NCBI GenBank assembly: GCA_965215015.1 | Contig: OZ244042.1 | Location: 4,096,001 to 4,160,000, forward strand | Source: Candidatus Poribacteria bacterium | GTDB lineage: Bacteria; Poribacteria; WGA-4E; PCPOR2b | Length of the DNA stretch: 64,000 nucleotides | Reading direction: 5' to 3' | In this document: in pieces, positions 2,087-18,169 of the stretch | How positions within the stretch are numbered: the stretch's first letter is position 1 | Layout of the letters: every line of letters begins with the position of its first letter | Program-made: the position numbers and the translations under genes | Notes under the pieces: generated by a model | Told to the model about the DNA's origin: nothing | What the model saw: the letters and a program-made list of their open reading frames with translations, nothing else | Databases searched by the model: none

Positions 2087-2800
2087 TTGTCTGAATCAGG
2101 ATTTTCAGGATGAAAGGATTGGCAGGATGATTTCATTCAGGTTGACAGTCTGTTCATGAGTGCCATAGAAGTATTTGCGGTTAGGATTTTAATGGCATTT
2201 GGGTGTTAGCCAAGCCGTATGCCGTAGCGGTTGTCTGAATCAGGATTTTCAGGATGAAAGGATTGGCAGGATGATTTCATTTAGACTGGCAGTCTATTCA
2301 TGCACACCCCAGAAGTATTTGCGGTTAGGATTTTAACGGCATTTGGGTGTTAGCCAAGCCGTATGCCGTAGCGGTTGTCTGAATCAGGATTTTCAGGATG
2401 AAAGGATTGGCAGGATGATTTCATTCGGACTGACAGTCTGTTCATGAGTGCCCCAGAAGTATTTGCGGTTAGGATTTTAATGGCATTTGGGTGTTAGCCA
2501 AGCCGTATGCCGTAGCGGTTGTCTGAATCAGGATTTTCAGGAGGAAAGGGTTGGGGGGATGATTTCATTTAGACTGGCAGTCTATTCATGCACACCCCAG
2601 AAGTATTTGGGGATAGGATTTTAATGGCAGTTGGGTGTTAGCCAAGTCGTATGCCGTAGCGGTTGTCTGAATCAGGATTTTCAGGATGAAAGGATTGGCA
2701 GGATGATTTTATTTAGACTGGCAGTCTATTCATGAGTGCCCTACAAGTATTTGAGGTTAGGAGTTTGATGGCAGTTGGGTGTTAGCCAAGCCCTATACCG
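2087..2800 (+). repeat. Tandem array of five 144-bp units (starts 2087, 2231, 2375, 2519, 2663)
   Basis: Each unit begins TTGTCTGAATCAGGATTTTCAGGATGAAAGGATTGGCAGGAT (variant in unit 4) and units 1-4 end GTATGCCGTAGCGG; exact 144-bp period. Confidence 0.97.
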
Positions 2801-2839
2801 TTTGATTCTATCCGAAAGAAAAAAAATGGAGATAATTTA

Positions 2840-5800
2840 GTGCCCCAAATAACGCCTGAGAATATTCACAGTATCTATAACTTTGACGCATTGTTAAACT
2901 TTTTGCGAGAAAAGCTTGACTGGCCCATCCCTGAAGGGGTTGAACTTGAAGATGTTGCCTTTCCTTGGTCCCCCGAAGATCTCGATCTGGATGAACCGAC
3001 TGAGGGGCGAATCATTGACTGTTGGCAGCTGCCGCCTTTCTCAACTGACCAGCTTGAACTCGGATTTCATGAGGGGGGCCAACCGTGGGGCATCTTTTTT
3101 GTCCAATTTAAGAGTGAATCCATCTATCGGACTGCCCTAAGACGTGTTCTACGTGGGCTTGTTGAGAGACGGGACCGAGATCCAAACCTTCCCGTTTGGA
3201 ATCATGATCAACTCCTCTTTATCTGTACCACAGATGACTTTCAACGCTTCGCTTTTGCACACTTCGCCTCCACCGAAAACTGGCACCGCGCTGTGCTCTC
3301 CATCTTTTCGTGGGAACAGGGAGATACCCACCTCCGCACCCTCTGCGAATATAACCTCCCCGCCCTCACGTTTCCAACAGGAGGATTCTCAAATAATCAG
3401 GACTGGCTCCGAGAATGGCAAGCAGCATTTGACGTGGAAGCAGTTACCGAAAAATTCTTTGCCGAATACCAACGTATCTTTGAACAGGTAGAAGCTGCAA
3501 TCGAGGGTATTCCAGCAAGCGAAAAAGCGCAACGTCGGTTGTATATGCAACGACTCTTCAACCGGCTGATGTTCCTTCGATTTGTTGAAAAGAAGAAGTG
3601 GCTTACCTACAACAGCGATTACAACTACCTACGCGCTCTTTTCAACGCTGCGAACGAAACTGACGAAAACTTTCTCAATGACCGGCTCTATTGGGCCTTC
3701 TTTAATGGACTCGGCACCGCAGCAGATTTACCTCACGACTGCGCTGAAATTGAGGAGCGGCGAGGTAAAGTTCCTTTTCTCAACGGTGGGCTCTTTGAGA
3801 TGCAAGAATATGATGAACGCCATGCGGTGCATATCCCTAACACTGAGTTTGGCAAAATTTTGGACCTTTTTGAGCGATACAACTTTACGGTAACCGAATC
3901 CACTCCACTTGATATTGAGGTTGCTGTTGATCCCGAGATGCTTGGAAAGGTGTTTGAAGAACTTGTGACAGCCAGACACGATACCGGCAGCTACTACACA
4001 CCGCGCCCGGTTGTCTCCTTTATGTGCCGAGAGAGTTTGAAAATCTGCCTTCGTAATAAAACCGATGAAACACCGGCATGTCTTCAAGCATTTGTCGATG
4101 CCGATGATGCGACGGCAATTAGGAATCCAGAGCAGGTATTACAGGTGCTTCAAACGCTCCGCATTTGCGACCCAGCGTGTGGGAGTGGTGCCTATCTGCT
4201 CGGAATGATGAGCGAACTGCTTCGCTTGCGCGATGCCCTGTTCCAAAGCAATCAGATTGATGCCAAAACGACCTATCAACGCAAACTGGACATCATTCAG
4301 GAAAACCTCTACGGCGTGGACAACGATGAATTCGCTGTCAATAATGCCATGCTCCGCTTGTGGCTTAGCCTCGCAGTTGATTATGAGGGTGATATACCAG
4401 AACCGTTGCCTAACTTAGACTATAAAGTTACTGTTGGAGATAGCGTAACGGGGCCTGCGCCTGAACCTTCCGATGGCCAACTCCGGTCCGAAGACAGTTT
4501 AATTCAACAGATTCAGGAACATAAAGCCAACTATCTGGTTACCCACACTGATTTTGAGAAACAGAGACTTCGAGAGAGGATTACCGAACTCAAAAGAGAT
4601 CTTCAAGGGTGGAGTGTAAGCCAGGATGAGTTCGTCTGGCAGGTCGAATTTTCAGAAGTCTTCCAGGAAGGTGGATTTGATATTATCGTCGGCAACCCCC
4701 CTTATGTGCGACATGAGCTTATCAGACCGATTAAACCGATTTTAGAACAGCGATTTTCGGGTTTTTTTGTAAGCACTGCGGACCTCTATGTCTACTTCTA
4801 TAAACGAGGAGCGGAATTGCTCCGCGGGGGCGGGATTCTCACTTATATCTCCTCCAATAAATTTTTGCGAGCAGGGTACGGTCGGAAACTCCGGCAGCTC
4901 TTGACGAATAAAATGTGCCTTCAAAAACTGCTCGATTTTGGGAGTGTGCCAGTTTTTGGGGCGAGTGTGGATACCTGTATTGTCCTTGTTGAAAACGCTA
5001 TTCCGGGGGGAGAGACGTTTGCGGCGGCAATCTTTCGTGACAAGGCCGATGTCCCTCGCCTCTCTACAGCGTTTCAAGAGCATGCGATTTCTATGTACGC
5101 CCGCGACTTGTCCCCAGATGGATGGACTTTGACATCACCGGAGGCACTGAAACTGCTCGAAAAACTCCAAGGAACCGGAACACCGCTGGGAGAATACATG
5201 GATGGTGATTTCTATATCGGCGTGGTAACAGGCTGCAATGAGGCCTTTATAATTGATGCCTTAACGCGTCAGCAGCTGATTGCTGAGGATCCCAATAGTG
5301 GTGAACTCATAAAATCCTTGTTTCGTGGACGCAATCTTCAAAAATGGAGAACAGAAGCAACAGACGAGTATCTTATAACAATAGCGAGCAGCGCGAACGT
5401 GGAATGGCCTTGGTCAAATGCAGCAAACTATTTAGAAGCGGAACAACTTTTCGCCCAAACTTATCCGGCAATTTATCAACATTTGAACGCTTATCGGGAA
5501 TCGTTGATTTGCCGTATCGACCAAGGCACATTTTATTGGGAACTCCGCTCCTGTTTTTATTATACCAAGTTTGAAAAACCGAAGATTGTCTACCGAGACA
5601 TGGCAAAGTTCTTCTCAGCAAGCTATGATACTAAGGGAACATTCAGTTTAAACACAACATTCTTCATACCCACCGGCGATCTCTCTTTACTCGCTATTCT
5701 GAATAGTCAGCTCTTTGATTGGTATGCCCGACACAAGTTTCAGACCCTTAACGACCCGTGGGCGGGAGGTGGGCTGCGTTTCTTTGTGCAGTATATGCGG

Positions 5801-6004
5801 CGTGTTCCGATAGCAGGCCGTACTGCGGTGCAAAAAGCAGCTTTGGCGCGTTTGGTTGAACGGATACTCATAGACCCCAAAGGTGATAAGGTACGTGACT
5901 TTGAGAGGGAAATAGATGCACAGGTCTATCAACTCTACGACTTAACAGATGAAGAGATTGCGTTGATTGAGCGGACATACGAGGAGGCAGGGATGCAGCG
6001 GTGA
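2840..6004 (+). CDS. Eco57I/TaqI-like (type IIG-related) N6-adenine DNA methyltransferase with C-terminal target-recognition domain
   Basis: GSYYTPR (X), DPACGSGAYL (I), DIIVGNPPYVR (IV), TaqI_C-like C-terminus; GGAG RBS before GTG. Confidence 0.88.
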   Translation: MPQITPENIHSIYNFDALLNFLREKLDWPIPEGVELEDVAFPWSPEDLDLDEPTEGRIIDCWQLPPFSTDQLELGFHEGGQPWGIFFVQFKSESIYRTALRRVLRGLVERRDRDPNLPVWNHDQLLFICTTDDFQRFAFAHFASTENWHRAVLSIFSWEQGDTHLRTLCEYNLPALTFPTGGFSNNQDWLREWQAAFDVEAVTEKFFAEYQRIFEQVEAAIEGIPASEKAQRRLYMQRLFNRLMFLRFVEKKKWLTYNSDYNYLRALFNAANETDENFLNDRLYWAFFNGLGTAADLPHDCAEIEERRGKVPFLNGGLFEMQEYDERHAVHIPNTEFGKILDLFERYNFTVTESTPLDIEVAVDPEMLGKVFEELVTARHDTGSYYTPRPVVSFMCRESLKICLRNKTDETPACLQAFVDADDATAIRNPEQVLQVLQTLRICDPACGSGAYLLGMMSELLRLRDALFQSNQIDAKTTYQRKLDIIQENLYGVDNDEFAVNNAMLRLWLSLAVDYEGDIPEPLPNLDYKVTVGDSVTGPAPEPSDGQLRSEDSLIQQIQEHKANYLVTHTDFEKQRLRERITELKRDLQGWSVSQDEFVWQVEFSEVFQEGGFDIIVGNPPYVRHELIRPIKPILEQRFSGFFVSTADLYVYFYKRGAELLRGGGILTYISSNKFLRAGYGRKLRQLLTNKMCLQKLLDFGSVPVFGASVDTCIVLVENAIPGGETFAAAIFRDKADVPRLSTAFQEHAISMYARDLSPDGWTLTSPEALKLLEKLQGTGTPLGEYMDGDFYIGVVTGCNEAFIIDALTRQQLIAEDPNSGELIKSLFRGRNLQKWRTEATDEYLITIASSANVEWPWSNAANYLEAEQLFAQTYPAIYQHLNAYRESLICRIDQGTFYWELRSCFYYTKFEKPKIVYRDMAKFFSASYDTKGTFSLNTTFFIPTGDLSLLAILNSQLFDWYARHKFQTLNDPWAGGGLRFFVQYMRRVPIAGRTAVQKAALARLVERILIDPKGDKVRDFEREIDAQVYQLYDLTDEEIALIERTYEEAGMQR

Positions 6005-6151: not shown

Positions 6152-6524
6152 GTCTGAATCAGGATTTTCAGGATGAAAGGATTGGCAGGAAGATTTCATT
6201 CGGACTGATAGTCTATTCATGAGTGCCGCACAAGTATTTGAGGGTAGGCGTTTAATGGCAGTTGGGTGTTAGCCAAGCCCTATGCCGTTTAATTCTATCC
6301 GAAAGAAAAAAAATGGAGATAATTCAGTGCCCCAAATAACGCCTGAGAATATTCACAGCATCTATAACTTTGACGCATTGTTAAACTTTTTGCGAGAAAA
6401 GCTTGACTGGCCAATCCCTGAAGGGGTTGAACTTGAAGCAGAGGGTTAAATTCGTTTTCCAGAAGTAAATCCGATGAGATTTTCACGGGCACTGCGAACT
6501 GATAATTAGGGAGGCAAATTCTAT
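6152..6524 (+). pseudogene. Internally deleted tandem copy of the methyltransferase cassette (one repeat unit + RBS + first 37 codons fused to the 3' flank)
   Basis: 6152-6438 matches 2665-2951; 6439-6524 matches 6007-6092; residual 40-aa ORF at 6327-6449. Confidence 0.92.
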
Positions 6525-12462: not shown

Positions 12463-13278
12463 ATGCATCCACTCGTAAATCTCAAAGTACAGGAGGGGGC
12501 TGTTGCCGTTCATTGGTTTGAGCAGAGCACCTTTGCGGTGAAGGATTCGCACGGAACAGTTGTACAGATTGACCCGTACTTTCCACACGATCGTCCCGCT
12601 GACAGATTTATCCACACCGAACCGCCGTTAGACGAATCTCAACTCCCGACGGACTATGTGCTATTGACACACAACCACGGCGACCACACTTGGCCTGAAT
12701 CAATTAACCGCATCCACAAAACTTCACCGGAGGTAAGGTGTGTCGGACCGGAAGAGAGTATCGCACAGGTGCTATCAGATACGGATGTTGACACAGCTCA
12801 CACGACGACAATCCATGCCGGTGAGTCAGCATCACTCGGAACTCTCACGGTTGACGCTGTCTATGCGAAACCGCCTAATGGACACCCCGCCGCAAATATA
12901 GCACCGCCCGATGTAACCCATCTCGGCTACGTCCTTAAAACGGATGGGGTAACACTCTACTTTTCCGGCGATCCCATCAATACCTTTGCCGACCACGATG
13001 CGCTGGTGAACGCTGTCGCTGCATACAATCCGGATATTGGATTCTTGACCAATCACCCGACGGAAGGTGAATTTCCGTTCTATCATGGCTGTGTAAAGAT
13101 GGCGCAACGGATTGGGCTTAAGCACGCTGTTCCCTCGCACCGATCCTGCTTTGTCACGCGGGATTATAATCCGGATGAGTGGGCGGCGCAATTTCCTGCT
13201 GATGGACCTCAGCCGCTGATCATTCCCCGAAATTCGCACGTTATTTATCCGAGTCTGAATCAGGATACTCAGGATTGA
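12463..13278 (+). CDS. Metallo-beta-lactamase-fold hydrolase (UlaG-like)
   Basis: IDPYF, THNHGDH, YFSGD, PSH; last residues come from the downstream repeat. Confidence 0.88.
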   Translation: MHPLVNLKVQEGAVAVHWFEQSTFAVKDSHGTVVQIDPYFPHDRPADRFIHTEPPLDESQLPTDYVLLTHNHGDHTWPESINRIHKTSPEVRCVGPEESIAQVLSDTDVDTAHTTTIHAGESASLGTLTVDAVYAKPPNGHPAANIAPPDVTHLGYVLKTDGVTLYFSGDPINTFADHDALVNAVAAYNPDIGFLTNHPTEGEFPFYHGCVKMAQRIGLKHAVPSHRSCFVTRDYNPDEWAAQFPADGPQPLIIPRNSHVIYPSLNQDTQD

Positions 13279-14246
13279 GGGATTGACAGGATAAAAACCG
13301 TGAATCGGATAATATCGGGATTCAAACCAACTGGTTCGTCAAGTTGATTGAGCTGATACCCTCTTGTCTGAATCAGGATACTCAGGATGGAAGGATTGAC
13401 AGGATAAAAACCGTCATCGGATAATATCGGGATTCAAATCAACTAGTTCGTCAAGTTGATTGAACTGATACCTCCTTGTCTGAATCGGGATACTCAGGAT
13501 GGAAGGATTGACAGGATAAAAACCGTCATCGGATAATATCGGGATTCAAATCAACTGGTTCGTCAAGTTGATTGAGCTGATACCCTCTTGTCTGAATCAG
13601 GATACTCAGGATGGAAGGATTGACAGGATAAAAACCGTGAATCGGATAATATCGGGATTCAAACCAACTGGTTCGTCAAGTTGATTGAACTGATACCTCC
13701 TTGTCTGAATCGGGATACTCAGGATTGAGGGATTTACAGGATAAAAACCGTGAATCGGATAATATCGGGATTCAAACCAACTGGTTCGTCAAGTTGATTG
13801 AACTGATACCTCCTTGTCTGAATCAGGATACTCAGGATGGAAGGATTGACAGGATAAAAACCGTGAAGTTGACTATGATACTGGTAGAGGGGCATGGGGG
13901 GCTATGCCTACTACTACCCCCTTGTCTGAATCAGGATACTCAGGATTGAGGGATTGACAGGATAACAGCCGTGAAGTTGACTATGATACTGAATAGGGGG
14001 GGCATGGGGTTGCTAGGCCTACTACTACCCCCTTGTCTGAATCAGGATACTCAGGATGGAAGGATTGACAGGATAAAAACCGTGAAGTTGACTATGATAC
14101 TGGTAGAGGGGCATGGGGTTGCTAGGCCTACTACTACCCCCTTGTCTGAATCAGGATACTCAGGATGGAAGGATTTGCAGGATAAAAACCGTGAAGTTGA
14201 CTATGACACTGATAGGGGGGCATAGGGGTTGCTATGCCTACTACTA
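13253..14246 (+). repeat. Tandem array of nine 108-113-bp units with a shared ~48-bp head and two body types (A x5, B x4)
   Basis: Head GTCTGAATC(A/G)GGATACTCAGGAT...CAGGATAA at 13253, 13366, 13478, 13590, 13703, 13816, 13924, 14035, 14144. Confidence 0.97.
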
Positions 14247-14267
14247 AGTTCGTAAAAAGGAATTAAA

Positions 14268-15179
14268 ATGGGTTGGAAAGAAGAACTTGCGTCCCTTATC
14301 CAAAACCGAAACACTCCTTCTAAACTACGCTTTGACGAACCACTCAGTAAGCATAACTATTTTGGTATAGGTGGCAGTGCGGCGGCGTATTTTGAAGTGA
14401 GCACAGTCGGCGAATTGACGTATGTGGCACAACTGAGAAACCATTGGCAAGTGCCGGTTGCTATCATCGGTCGGGGATCGAACCTGCTGGTCAGCGATGC
14501 CGGATATCCGGGGATTGTCGTCCGATTAATCGGGGAATTTGATCGGCTTGAGTTTGACCAAAACCGTGTTCGGGTAGGCGCGGGCGTTTCCTTACCACGG
14601 TTGTCGAAAATAGCGGCACGGCGTGGATTGAGCGGTGTTGAGTTTGCGCTTGGGATTCCGGGCTCTGTCGGGGGGGCGCTGATTATGAATGCAGGGGCTT
14701 GGGGCAGCAGCTTCGGTGACTTGGTCGAGCGTGTGCAGGTGATGACCCACGAAGGCGAGGTGGTAGATCTCAACCGTGATGATGCCCAGTTTAGCTATCG
14801 TCATAGCGGTTTGCACATCTACTTCTGTATTACACGGGCCGAGCTCACCCTGACACCCGGCGATGCGGCGGCAGTTGCTGATCGTATGCAAGATCTCTAC
14901 AACCAGAAAATTACGAGCCAACCCTTTGCGGAGGAAAACGCGGGGTGCATGTTCAAGAATCCCCCCGGTCATTCGGCCGGGAAGCTGATCGATGAATGCG
15001 GCTTGAAGGGCTATCGAGTTGGTGGGGCGGAGGTATCTAAAATCCACGGCAACTTCATCCTCAACCTCGGTAACGCAACCGCTCAAGATGTGTTATCACT
15101 TGTTCGCCATATCCAAGCCCACGTCAAACGAGAGAGGGGGGTTAATCTAGAGATGGAGGTTCAGCTGCTGGGGTTTTAA
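14268..15179 (+). CDS. murB: UDP-N-acetylmuramate dehydrogenase
   Basis: IGRGSNLLV, GIPGSVGGALIMNAGA, FSYRHS, AGCMFKNP, HGNFILN, LEMEV. Confidence 0.96.
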   Translation: MGWKEELASLIQNRNTPSKLRFDEPLSKHNYFGIGGSAAAYFEVSTVGELTYVAQLRNHWQVPVAIIGRGSNLLVSDAGYPGIVVRLIGEFDRLEFDQNRVRVGAGVSLPRLSKIAARRGLSGVEFALGIPGSVGGALIMNAGAWGSSFGDLVERVQVMTHEGEVVDLNRDDAQFSYRHSGLHIYFCITRAELTLTPGDAAAVADRMQDLYNQKITSQPFAEENAGCMFKNPPGHSAGKLIDECGLKGYRVGGAEVSKIHGNFILNLGNATAQDVLSLVRHIQAHVKRERGVNLEMEVQLLGF

Positions 15180-16144: not shown

Positions 16145-18169
16145 ATGCGTTATATCGGCAGTAAATTAAATCTGTTATCCCAGATTGAAGGGGTCGTTGA
16201 CAATTTGGGGGTTAGAAAGGGGGTATTTTGCGACCTGTTCGCGGGCACAGTGTGTGTTGCGGCACACTTTAAACGCAAAGGATTTCAGATTATCTCTAAC
16301 GATTTTCTCGAACTCTCCTACGCCTTTCAGCGAGCATTGATTGCTAACAATGCGGAACCCGAATTTGCGAGTATTGTCGAAACACTCGGTGATGTACAAG
16401 ATGATAGCCTGTTTACTAACCTTTCACCATGCCATAAGGTGGTTGCCTGGTTGAACTGTCTCCCCGGCAAGAGAGGGTTTATCTTTCACAACTACTGTCC
16501 ATCAGGGAATAACGAATATGGTCGGCAATACCTATCCGATAGCAACGGACAGAAGATTGACGCAATCCGCCAACAGATTCAACAGTGGCGCGATGCAGGT
16601 GAGATCACGGAGAACGAATTTTATCTGCTGCTGCTACCGTTGTTGGAGGCGACATCGAAGGTCGCCAATATTTCTGGCACTTACGGCGCATATCTCAAAC
16701 ACTGGGATCCTCGAACTTATAAAGATTTGCCCATGGTTCCAGCTGAGATTATTCGGTCAGATGTGCGACATCAAGTGTTTCGGGGTGATGCAAATCAATT
16801 GATTGAGGCTATTCGGTGCGATGTCCTCTATCTTGATCCGCCGTACAACACCCGTCAATATATTACCAATTATCACCTGTTGGAGACCATTGCGCGGTAT
16901 GATGCCCCCCCTCTTCATGGGAAAACGGGGCTGCGCAACTACGAAGACGGGGAAAAATCGGCGTACTGCTCCAAATCAGATTGTTATCGCGCGTTCCAAG
17001 ACCTAATTGAAAAAGCAAACGCACGATATATTCTGGTGAGTTACAACAACGAAGGCATTTTGTCGCGTGATGAGGTGATGTCTATCCTTTCGCTTCGAGG
17101 TGAACCCCATTGCAATTCCCCCATTGATTACCGGCGGTTCAAAAGCAACTCTCATGGCGATCAACCCGCTTTAGATAACCGTGTACAGGAGTTGCTGTTT
17201 CACCTTGAAGTGACAACACCTCCAAAACAATCTCGGCAAAAAAATAAAGAGGAAGAACCAAAACGACGCTACGACCCACGGAACAAACTCAATGATCTCT
17301 CTGGGAGTGAGTGGACATATTTCCTCAACTCGGTTGAACTGGAAGGGACAGAACACAATCTAGGAAGACTCAACGATCTGTCTGAGGAGGAGTGGGCAAT
17401 TGCATCGGCCCCTGTTTGGGATACGCACTATCCGACCAATGGTCCCCAATCTGATGCCCATCACATTCGGAAGCAGCACCCGTCGCCAAAACCACCGGCA
17501 TTGATGAAACGCCTAATCGAGTTTTTTACGAAAGAGGGAGGGCGTGTTCTGGACCCGTTTGTTGGGGTCGGTGGAACGCTGTTAGCGTGTTCAATGGCTG
17601 GTAGGCATGGTGTTGGAATCGATCTATCGCAGGGCTATCGTGAGATTTACCACCAAGCCTGCGCTCAACTTAGCTTAGAACCGCAGCCTTTCCTGTGTGG
17701 AGATGCGAGGGATTTAGAGAATCTCTTAGGAGAAGTTGTGCCGTTCGATCTGCTCTTGACCGACCCACCTTATGGTGATATGCTCTCTCGGAAGCGTAGC
17801 GGTGACCGAAAAAAGAGAACAGGAGATGATAGTCCAACGCCCTTTACAGACAGTCCTGATGATCTGGGGAATATGCCGCCATCTCAGTTTTACAAATCGC
17901 TTAAGACGGTGATTGTTCACGCGATGCAGCACCTCAAACCGAAAGGGTACGTTGTCATTTTCTGCAAAGATCTCCAACCGACCGAAAAGTACCATAACAT
18001 GATTCACGCCGATGTTGTCAAAACCCTTACGGATGTCGAAAATTTGCGGTTTCGAGGCTACAAAATTTGGTATGATAAATCGCTGAAACTTTACCCGTTC
18101 GGTTATCCGTATGCATACGTTTCCAATCAACTCCATCAATTCAGTCTGATTTTCCGAAAGGAGGATTGA
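16145..18169 (+). CDS. Fused double DNA methyltransferase (Dam/FokI-like N6-adenine domain + second N4/N6 domain)
   Basis: N-half: MRYIGSK, DLFAGT, YLDPPYN; C-half: HPSPKP, VLDPFVGVGGT, LLTDPPYG. Confidence 0.88.
   Translation: MRYIGSKLNLLSQIEGVVDNLGVRKGVFCDLFAGTVCVAAHFKRKGFQIISNDFLELSYAFQRALIANNAEPEFASIVETLGDVQDDSLFTNLSPCHKVVAWLNCLPGKRGFIFHNYCPSGNNEYGRQYLSDSNGQKIDAIRQQIQQWRDAGEITENEFYLLLLPLLEATSKVANISGTYGAYLKHWDPRTYKDLPMVPAEIIRSDVRHQVFRGDANQLIEAIRCDVLYLDPPYNTRQYITNYHLLETIARYDAPPLHGKTGLRNYEDGEKSAYCSKSDCYRAFQDLIEKANARYILVSYNNEGILSRDEVMSILSLRGEPHCNSPIDYRRFKSNSHGDQPALDNRVQELLFHLEVTTPPKQSRQKNKEEEPKRRYDPRNKLNDLSGSEWTYFLNSVELEGTEHNLGRLNDLSEEEWAIASAPVWDTHYPTNGPQSDAHHIRKQHPSPKPPALMKRLIEFFTKEGGRVLDPFVGVGGTLLACSMAGRHGVGIDLSQGYREIYHQACAQLSLEPQPFLCGDARDLENLLGEVVPFDLLLTDPPYGDMLSRKRSGDRKKRTGDDSPTPFTDSPDDLGNMPPSQFYKSLKTVIVHAMQHLKPKGYVVIFCKDLQPTEKYHNMIHADVVKTLTDVENLRFRGYKIWYDKSLKLYPFGYPYAYVSNQLHQFSLIFRKED

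Follow-up and report, generated by a model that had tools for sequence, protein, structure and literature searches.

Organization of the hydrolase-murB locus

The DNA analyzed in this study, referred to as the window, is a 64,000-nucleotide stretch (positions 4,096,001 to 4,160,000 of contig OZ244042.1) of the genome of a Candidatus Poribacteria bacterium, which consists of a single contig (C1, 5.94 Mb, 49% G+C, 98% complete). Positions are given in window coordinates unless they are prefixed with C1. A gene encoding a metallo-beta-lactamase-fold hydrolase and a murB-like gene, named from its translated sequence, are separated by an array of repeats at 13253-14246, designated array 2, in which nine head-to-tail units (five of type A followed by four of type B) all open with the same sequence, the head. 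Another array of the window, array 1, combines the same head with a different body; on one side of it is an SNF2/PLD helicase gene and on the other a type IIG (Eco57I-like) restriction-modification gene. The open reading frames (ORFs) identified around array 2 encode the hydrolase, MurB and a DNA methyltransferase.

Cutting array 2 at its heads yielded nine units of 103-113 bases. Tandem Repeats Finder reported a repeat of period 113 at 13253-13867 (5.5 copies, 94% matches, score 1090) and one of period 109 at 13807-14246 (4.0 copies, 91% matches, score 741), as well as array 1 at 2087-2801 with a period of 144 and 5.0 copies. Both procedures bear out an earlier note on this DNA, made from its letters, which had described nine heads with units 1-5 of type A and units 6-9 of type B. 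The head core GTCTGAATCAGGAT, searched with at most one mismatch, was present in 15 copies in the window, all of them on the + strand (nine in array 2, five in array 1 and one alone at 6152), compared with 0.04 copies expected by chance, and none of 100 shuffles reached this number.

Each type A unit consists of the 42-base head, AAAAACCGTGAA (CCGTCA in units 2-3) and body A, which contains a short hairpin (CAACTGG..CAAGTTG, seen in the unit fold) and the tail AAGTTGATTGAACTGATACCTCCTT. Type B units share the head and AAAAACCGTGAA and continue with body B (GTTGACTATGA...GGGGCATGGGG..GCTAxGCCTACTAC). The last unit of array 2, unit 9, is shortened and runs into AGTTCGTAAA, the beginning of the A-tail. 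Two variants of the head are common to A and B units (TTGAGGG: units 1, 5 and 7; TGGAAGG: units 2, 3, 4, 6, 8 and 9), which fits an exchange among units.

Array 2 is not an artefact of one assembly, since Logan contigs from independent public runs of two studies (X1 and X6) cover its left junction (12900-13275 in X1, 12900-13282 in X6), the transition from A to B (13781-13949 in X6) and its right junction (14186-14600 in X1, 14194-14600 in X6). Several unit-variant pieces matched X1 contigs at 0 differences, and a further run (X5) gave partial coverage. No public contig spans the whole array, and the copy number of 5 + 4 is the count of this assembly.

The locus was compared with that of the same genus, in which 19 genomes were searched and the locus was recovered in 18 (the remaining genome, G016, gave head hits only). 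The hydrolase gene and murB were direct neighbours in all 18. In 13 of these relatives only 20-26 bases, reading ...TATCCGA GTTAA AGCGAGGAATTAAAATG, lie between the hydrolase gene and the murB ATG, and the two genes look like a tightly coupled pair ancestrally. The corresponding gap in the genome studied is 1016 bases. The hydrolase of the relatives ends in ...IYPS-stop; here the first head adds the seven residues LNQDTQD before a new stop. A gap of 516 bases in relative G002 holds one composite unit (A-tail, head, B-like part, A-like part) along with other hairpin repeats, and its right-hand junction resembles that of array 2. Gaps of 208, 173, 80 and 83 bases in G003, G011, G017 and G012, respectively, contain other hairpin repeats. 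The hairpin repeats in these four gaps (L042, L050, L057 and L059), with the sequences GTTGGGTTTCACG...CAACCCAACCTAC and ATATCGCTCCTCTGGAGCG, are of the GTAG type of repetitive extragenic palindrome (REP). As it is occupied by various repeats in five relatives, the hydrolase-murB site is an insertion hot spot, and judging from these comparisons array 2 arose by an insertion and a 5 + 4 amplification specific to this lineage.

Two promoter-like sites of the form TTGACA-18-GATAAT were detected in array 2 by consensus match, which is not more than chance (shuffle mean 2.9), and no terminator-like site was found in the array. Downstream of murB and a PhyH-like gene, at a distance of 1 kb, a 674-residue ORF (16145-18169) gave weak matches to adenine/N4-type DNA methyltransferase models in both of its halves and looks like a fused double methyltransferase.

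Bodies A and B as parts of one composite unit

The earlier note had taken bodies A and B for unrelated sequences. Closer examination contradicted this view, as both open with AAAAACCGTGAA directly after the head and both correspond to parts of a single composite. At C1:5616935-5617610, a four-head array has a 181-base unit composed of the head, AAAAACCGTGAA, a B-like part and an A-like part (CGGGATTCAAACCAACTGG ... AAGTTGATTGAACTGATAAACCT). Contigs in three runs link the end of B to the middle of A via the 13-17 joining letters of this composite. Based on the C1:5616935 unit, the G002 locus and the linking contigs, A and B are alternative deletion forms of one composite. The note had also proposed that the bodies hold pieces of other dispersed repeats. 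This was correct for body 1, the body of array 1, which contains a dispersed repeat present at at least 12 other sites without a head, but not for bodies A and B, whose sole matches outside array 2 are at the C1:5616935 locus. An origin of the bodies from phages or plasmids found no support either, with no match of array 2 among 50,697 phage and 72,556 plasmid records at E 1e-5.

A 54-base variant of the head, which carries a 12-base extension and ends in AAAAACCGTGAA, was detected at 19 sites in seven loci, all on the + strand. It is joined to five different, mutually unrelated continuations, all of which begin at exactly the same base, directly after CCGTGAA.

The head family across the genome

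In the head, GTCTGAATC precedes four (C)AGGAT boxes with spacings of 9, 8 and 9 bases. According to column counts over 270 copies, the AGGAT boxes are kept in 83-97% of the copies and the spacers vary. Among copies chosen on their first 14 bases only, the second to fourth (C)AGGAT boxes were kept in approximately 75-91%, the spacers between them are free to vary, and conservation ends past position 40. A profile built from the 270 copies detected 366 heads in the genome (174 on the + and 192 on the - strand), which form 99 clusters ranging from solo heads (48 clusters) to arrays of 28 heads. The majority (352 of 366) are intergenic by a crude ORF-based gene list. Direct arrays of at least three heads numbered 20, and the 100 bases downstream of the heads sorted into 76 similarity clusters. 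These numbers, along with the five continuations described above, support the inference of the note that the head is an amplifying module which duplicates with adjacent DNA, and show this module to be dispersed.

A considerable part of the family (148 of 366 heads) is organized in 74 convergent doublets consisting of a head, a loop of 16-20 bases and an inverted head, with a total length of 100-110 bases, mostly 104 or 108. One of these doublets is isolated and the rest are located in arrays; array 2 contains direct copies only and no inverted doublets. Among the nine inverted head pairs at most 8 kb apart, eight enclose 181-455 bases without any ORF, while the ninth (5.3 kb) encloses six ORFs, and an autonomous element between inverted heads was found in none of the nine. 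Heads have no fixed orientation with respect to the genes beside them: where a direct array lies between co-directional genes, it was sense in six cases and antisense in 11, and solo heads had a co-oriented downstream gene in 33 of 48 cases. The start at the 3' end of a gene on the sense strand, which the note had described for both arrays of the window, is true of these two but is not a genome-wide rule. GC skew is weak in this genome, and the head strands follow no replichore pattern.

Two further repeat types were observed near heads. At C1:5617790-5617840, variant heads keep the TTGTCTGAATC prefix and have their AGGAT boxes swapped for GCAGAT, CGGATT/ACGGATT or GTGAT; in Poribacteria relatives (L279-L286), such variant-box heads bracket GxxExxY genes of other clades. 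Downstream of some solo heads (C1:3762343-3768500, 3929704, 4528762 and 4741844), TGTTAGS / CTAACAG motifs occur in dense runs. They resemble the cores of integron attC sites (GTTRRRY) and could represent either another periodic-motif repeat family or real attC sites.

Distribution of the head across genomes and phyla

The pattern GTCTGAATCAGGATNNNCAGGAT, with one mismatch allowed, was present in 18 of 18 genomes of the same genus (7-43 copies each, compared with 163 in the genome studied) and in three of four genomes of a second family (65-166 copies each), and in none of the eight genomes of two further families. The reversed control had 0 matches in every genome. A stricter, exact head pattern identified at least 124 loci in a species-level genome collection; the matches listed belong to Nostocales cyanobacteria, Bacteroidota, Dehalococcoidia/Chloroflexota, Latescibacterota, Thiomargarita/Thioploca/Thiotrichaceae, Desulfobacterales and Poribacteria. 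The AGGAT head occurs as a nearly identical 42-base sequence in at least seven phyla including Poribacteria. Its layouts in the other phyla are those described above (solo heads, direct arrays and hairpin doublets), and five genomes from these phyla had 213, 37, 355, 70 and 26 heads.

Viral contigs of IMG/VR contained 12 head loci in eight contigs (L202-L213), situated for example just past large terminase genes (L212, L213) or beside tail and KilA-N genes, and phages may thus carry or spread the repeat. In a Dehalococcoidia chromosome (G034), every one of the first 100 heads found with the strict pattern, counted by position (28 kb to 1.93 Mb), lies on the + strand. Among 20 pieces of 20 kb sampled from this chromosome (L244-L263), the strand of the heads goes with the sign of an extreme strand asymmetry (G 39-41% vs C 20-23%, with T above A, on one strand in the pieces examined), with 48 + and 11 - heads at positive skew and 11 + and 23 - heads at negative skew, which suggests a link to replication direction or single-strand chemistry. 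Two ORF-based methods disagreed on the orientation of the genes around these heads.

A GxxExxY nuclease cassette bracketed by the head

In the genomes of other phyla, most genes flanking heads are unrelated housekeeping, phage or toxin-antitoxin genes, with small PDDEXK_3 genes as the exception. Three of ten PDDEXK_3 loci examined in five genomes of four phyla were bracketed by AGGAT heads (Pontibacter, a Dehalococcoidia genome and Sphaerospermopsis), and five were bracketed by inverted runs of other motifs (CGCAGAG, CGCCAAG, CGCAGAT, CACAGAAGG and GATTTAGAT/ACGGATT). The three AGGAT-linked proteins share 65-71% mutual identity, compared with 30-56% to other PDDEXK_3 proteins including paralogs of the same genome. 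They match TIGR04256 ('GxxExxY protein') and are approximately 125 residues long.

An advance prediction that near relatives of this nuclease carry the head and distant ones do not was checked in 31 Poribacteria genomes. All four loci at 65% identity or more were AGGAT-bracketed (three from the same genus at 78-79%, one from a second family), in contrast to none of the eight loci at 53-59%, at which the heads combine the same GTCTGAATC prefix with CGGATT-type or GTGAT boxes. The prediction thus held. In metagenomes, 80 loci encoding relatives at 61-76% identity were searched with the profile built from the copies of the genome studied, and a head was present within 350 bases of 71 of them. Among the 64 loci with at least 300 bases on each side, heads were found on both sides in 45, upstream only in 10, downstream only in three and on neither side in six; the commonest layout, with 35 loci, was head(+) gene head(-). 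As judged from sequence, the 42-base head is the terminal inverted repeat of a miniature GxxExxY (PD-(D/E)XK) nuclease cassette, and box motif and nuclease clade change together, with other clades keeping the GTCTGAATC prefix with other boxes. The cassette with this very head is present in related Poribacteria and at least six further phyla.

A model of the nuclease based on a 28-row alignment (predicted local distance difference test score, pLDDT, 92.3) has a PD-(D/E)XK fold and is nearest to Cas4 SSO0001 (Foldseek E 1e-5), with lambda-exonuclease-type enzymes also matching. Residues G23, E26, Y29, D65 and K77 are invariant in this alignment and E75 is nearly so, which makes an active nuclease plausible. 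No solved structure was matched by sequence for this clade at E 0.01.

The earlier note had suggested looking for a partner gene, such as GxxExxY or RAYT, consistently beside head copies. The former idea was right insofar as a specific GxxExxY clade is bracketed by heads in other genomes, but no such gene was found in the genome studied (neither PF13366 nor the clade protein gave a match). Array 2 holds no GxxExxY ORF, and with the gene found neither within the element nor in the genome, it represents an orphan derivative and not a full cassette. In three relatives (G006, G014 and G005), the cognate cassette adjoins sequences that in the genome studied flank both sides of the array at C1:1753239-1754147, in which 12 heads form six hairpin doublets. 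This array is most simply read as what appears to be a remnant at an old cassette site, from which the gene was deleted and the repeats were kept. The RAYT idea was not sustained: among RAYT/IS200 candidates, only two partial Y1_Tnp matches (C1:1533127 and C1:2414499) were present, neither of them near a head cluster. A four-helix-bundle '23S IVS' protein, also considered as a partner, was absent from this genome.

Restriction-modification genes and tyrosine recombinases near heads

Of 26 large genes neighbouring heads, 20 were scanned and 17 of these were restriction-modification or defence genes. A head cluster, often overlapping the stop codon, was present at the flank of eight of 13 Eco57I-type and all four type ISP paralogs of the genome. 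Type IIG (Eco57I-like), type ISP, DUF1156/DUF499 and further defence genes have head arrays piled up at their 3' ends, and these arrays often provide the stop codon (Table 1). In four relatives, five of 17 Eco57I loci hold a head, each 3' of the gene if the contig orientation is as assumed.

The genome studied also encodes a tyrosine recombinase family with approximately 15 loci, several of them truncated. In one subgroup, 81-100% identical and present only in this genome among the 31 genomes searched, a head is located 100-240 bases upstream, and head-like repeats extend into what is annotated as the N-terminus. The recombinases near heads gave generic Xer-like NCBIfam scores below cut-offs and do not co-vary with heads, and none is located beside array 2. 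The expanded family is probably a separate, recently active element.

Table 1. Positions of repeats, genes and sites discussed in the text (window coordinates unless prefixed with C1)
Feature	Position	Strand	Remarks
Metallo-beta-lactamase-fold hydrolase gene	12463..13278	+	upstream of array 2
Head of unit 1, example of the 42-base head	13253..13294	+	takes the place of the ancestral stop codon of the upstream gene
Type A units 1-5	13253..13815	+	113, 112, 112, 113, 113 bases
Promoter-like site TTGACA-18-GATAAT, 11 of 12 matches	13396..13425	+	end of head and body A; consensus match only
Second TTGACA-18-GATAAT copy	13508-13537	+	consensus match only
Type B units 6-9	13816..14246	+	108, 111, 109, 103 bases
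murB-like gene	14268..15179	+	directly downstream of array 2
Array 1, five 144-base units	2087..2801	+	same head, different body; Tandem Repeats Finder
Type IIG gene with head pile-up	2840-6004		between array 1 and the solo head at 6152
Solo head with array-1-like body	6152..6193	+	148 bases past the type IIG gene
54-base head variant loci	C1:2974734, 2975092, 4109304-4110195, 5258422, 5268814-5269405, 5286737-5287186, 5616988-5617350	+	
Defence genes with head pile-ups (1)	C1:306149-309277, 377639-381040, 3333297-3336842, 3403066-3406671		
Defence genes with head pile-ups (2)	C1:3797369-3800935, 3804632-3808249, 5175041-5178166, 5414668-5418174, others		
Tyrosine recombinase loci	C1:6759-7730, 2380293-2381294, 2700822-2701406, 2864645-2865331, 3847736-3848721, approximately 10 more		

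Origin of array 2 and alternative explanations

Array 2 probably arose when an orphan copy of a selfish repeat, composed of TTGTCTGAATC and four AGGAT boxes, was amplified in tandem in this one lineage. A composite with the order A-tail, head, B, A would have landed between the hydrolase gene and murB, a repeat-collecting site. Host recombination or replication slippage would then have yielded the deletion variants head+A and head+B, and the same processes would have multiplied them to 5 + 4 copies. As to the head itself, the nuclease most likely recognizes the box array as a transposase does its terminal repeats. We assign no dedicated function to array 2 and regard its effects as side effects, namely the seven residues added to the hydrolase, the distance of about 1 kb between murB and its operon partner, and a spacer with a promoter-like site and no terminator-like site.

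A wider interpretation, which we put forward tentatively and hold to be possible though doubtful, is that a new kind of mobile element uses the AGGAT head as its recognition array, and that in this element a minimal PD-(D/E)XK (GxxExxY) nuclease, in place of a transposase of any known class, moves or homes a hairpin-bounded cassette across phyla, with clade-specific boxes behind GTCTGAATC. If this were true, solo heads joined to varied bodies at one breakpoint would be one-ended events of the enzyme, tandem arrays and the pile-ups at restriction-modification 3' ends would be the same events, and these pile-ups could be recombination handles that remodel specificity ends.

Several observations weigh against the explanation of array 2 as an amplified orphan of a nuclease-associated repeat. 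The enrichment of heads at restriction-modification genes is strong and has no explanation in the proposed model. The breakpoint fixed behind CCGTGAA suggests that a site-specific joining step took part, which is likewise outside the model, and array 2 ends without a terminal head. Plain unequal crossing-over accounts for neither, and between two flanking heads it does not predict such an end. A target-site duplication was not visible at the single isolated doublet. Head counts do not track the cognate gene: three relatives with the gene (G005, G006 and G014) have 22-34 heads, while the genome studied and G019, in which the gene was not found with the clade query, have 163 and 166. The spread of the head may consequently not need the nuclease, or the loss of the gene may be recent. 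In addition, the gene set used for the genome studied is a crude ORF list and not an annotation.

The head counts also speak for regarding the head as an ordinary host-serviced element of the REP type, for example a transcript-end or nucleoid-protein site, spread and amplified by host recombination alone; its link to GxxExxY genes would then be secondary, with the cassette using or collecting such repeats. Heads are most numerous where the cognate gene was not found, nearly all of the 74 hairpin doublets lie in arrays, heads are situated at gene ends and often give the stop codon, and the hot spot of array 2 is taken in relatives by GTAG-type hairpin repeats. Near-identity over 42 bases in at least seven phyla is, however, hard to attribute to factors of unrelated hosts, the box motif varies with the nuclease clade, and 71 of 80 clade loci have a head, so that we consider a REP-type element unlikely. 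That the array was domesticated as a regulatory spacer, providing murB with its own promoter after the insertion had split its coupling to the hydrolase gene, is less likely still. It would be consistent with the sigma-70-like match (11 of 12 positions) in A units 2 and 3, which is directed at murB, with the ancestral gap of only 20-26 bases and with the lack of a terminator-like site in array 2. On the other hand, such sites were not above shuffles (2 vs a mean of 2.9), and only two of the nine units have the right spacing.

Even lower in probability is a function of array 2 as RNA, either as a sponge of the CsrA/RsmA type via 36 exposed GGA boxes or as a CRISPR-like repeat-cargo RNA, which the earlier note had entertained as a system acting in trans. 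The region of each head that holds the four (C)AGGAT boxes is mostly unpaired by prediction, a similar motif of the CAGGAUG type is repeated in CsrB, and array 2, in which no terminator-like site was found, is in sense orientation to the two co-directional genes around it. The csrA check proposed in the note was negative, with no CsrA (PF02599) found in the 98%-complete genome, no Rfam family matched in the window, and the units of array 2 fold no better than shuffles (z -0.02 and +1.49; the array 1 unit, z -3.4). Furthermore, direct arrays between co-directional genes were more often antisense than sense, the bodies are repeated (five A, four B) and not unique, the array is absent from the site in 13 of 18 relatives, and there was no phage or plasmid match. 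The CsrA sponge was rejected on the missing csrA, the missing Rfam match and the array 2 folds, the CRISPR-like system on repeated bodies that match another locus of the same genome and the lack of phage or plasmid matches. The least probable reading of all takes the heads for tyrosine recombinase sites, with integron- or shufflon-like cassettes and arrays as stacked insertions. A Phage_integrase family of approximately 15 loci does have a co-oriented head 100-240 bases upstream in five copies (a sixth, C1:6759-7730, has one in a regex scan only), GTTRRRY-like motifs are common near recombinase copies, and arrays abut the specificity-domain ends of restriction-modification genes. This local association is real, but the phyletic pattern among 31 relatives does not match it, and the recombinase was rejected as a partner: G002, G003, G011 and G025 have heads and no recombinase match, G023, G026 and G029 have 10, 2 and 3 recombinase matches and no heads. 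The best NCBIfam matches are generic Xer models far under the cut-offs, and outside Poribacteria the heads flank GxxExxY genes and not recombinases.

With array 2 read as an amplified orphan repeat, the false lead of a CRISPR-like or RNA-sponge system is removed from this locus, and the insertion explains why the essential cell-wall gene murB lies about 1 kb from its operon partner. Near letter-for-letter copies of a 42-base sequence in Poribacteria, Nostocales, Bacteroidota, Dehalococcoidia, Latescibacterota, giant sulfur bacteria and Desulfobacterales are linked by this result to one clade of an uncharacterised nuclease family. Since motif and clade change together, the head is a candidate substrate, which can be tested, for the orphan family TIGR04256. 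Genomes that have the gene and few repeats and genomes that have hundreds of repeats without the gene provide a natural comparison. Recognition of the heads is also useful for annotation, as they yield many spurious small ORFs and break assemblies.

Comparison with known systems

A literature search with literal head strings and their complements, which did not extend to supplementary files, returned no relevant paper; the three matches look like chance primers by title. In the parts of the sources returned by searches on GxxExxY and PDDEXK_3, no description of a repeat-bracketed GxxExxY cassette was found. The element family to which array 2 belongs appears to be undescribed in print.

Array 2 resembles CRISPR arrays in the regular alternation of a constant part with another part. 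It differs from them in that its 'spacers' are repeated and related to other genomic repeats and that its units are 103-113 bases long, and the head differs from a CRISPR repeat by its 99 clusters, both orientations and hairpin doublets. Bacterial interspersed mosaic elements (BIMEs) of E. coli and BOX elements of pneumococci are modular, and their copy number differs between strains. Like these, head arrays combine a constant module with variable numbers of others at gene ends in operons, although sequences and hosts are different, and to our knowledge neither BIMEs nor BOX elements have a nuclease-gene partner. The inverted pairs of heads around 181-455 ORF-less, non-autonomous bases are reminiscent of miniature inverted-repeat transposable elements (MITEs). 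Unlike MITEs, the heads have neither a DDE transposase partner nor a parental insertion sequence (IS), show no target-site duplication at the isolated doublet and are mostly solo or tandem.

Direct repeats of the heptamer TAACTGA are common to Beggiatoaceae, Cyanobacteria and Bacteroidetes according to the abstract of MacGregor 2015 (PMC4679880). They share with the head an intergenic location, a short period and an unexpected spread across phyla, for which the abstract gives no known transfer mechanism in the case of TAACTGA. In contrast to the spaced boxes of the head, these heptamers are in direct contact, in 2-43 copies just upstream of start codons, and the abstract mentions no associated gene. 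REPIN-RAYT pairs, as far as outlined in the portion of the report drawn on here (Bertels & Rainey 2011, PMC3116915), are likewise short intergenic repeats that form inverted doublets and clusters and whose partner is a single small gene of the single-copy type with the repeats on either side; in both systems non-autonomous copies far outnumber the gene, and some genomes keep the repeats without it. On the same portion of that report, the partner differs, being a PD-(D/E)XK GxxExxY nuclease for the head and a Y1 transposase for REPINs, and the head consists of a prefix and four direct 5-base boxes with the same sequence across phyla, not of a GC-rich palindrome. REPIN-RAYT pairs and MITEs are thus the closest known systems in terms of how they work, and the head is a member of neither. 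Taken alone, array 2 is an object of an ordinary kind, namely a selfish repeat amplified in tandem. New in this study are the AGGAT head type, its cross-phylum identity, the test of the clade-motif prediction, the orphan expanded state and the link to restriction-modification genes.

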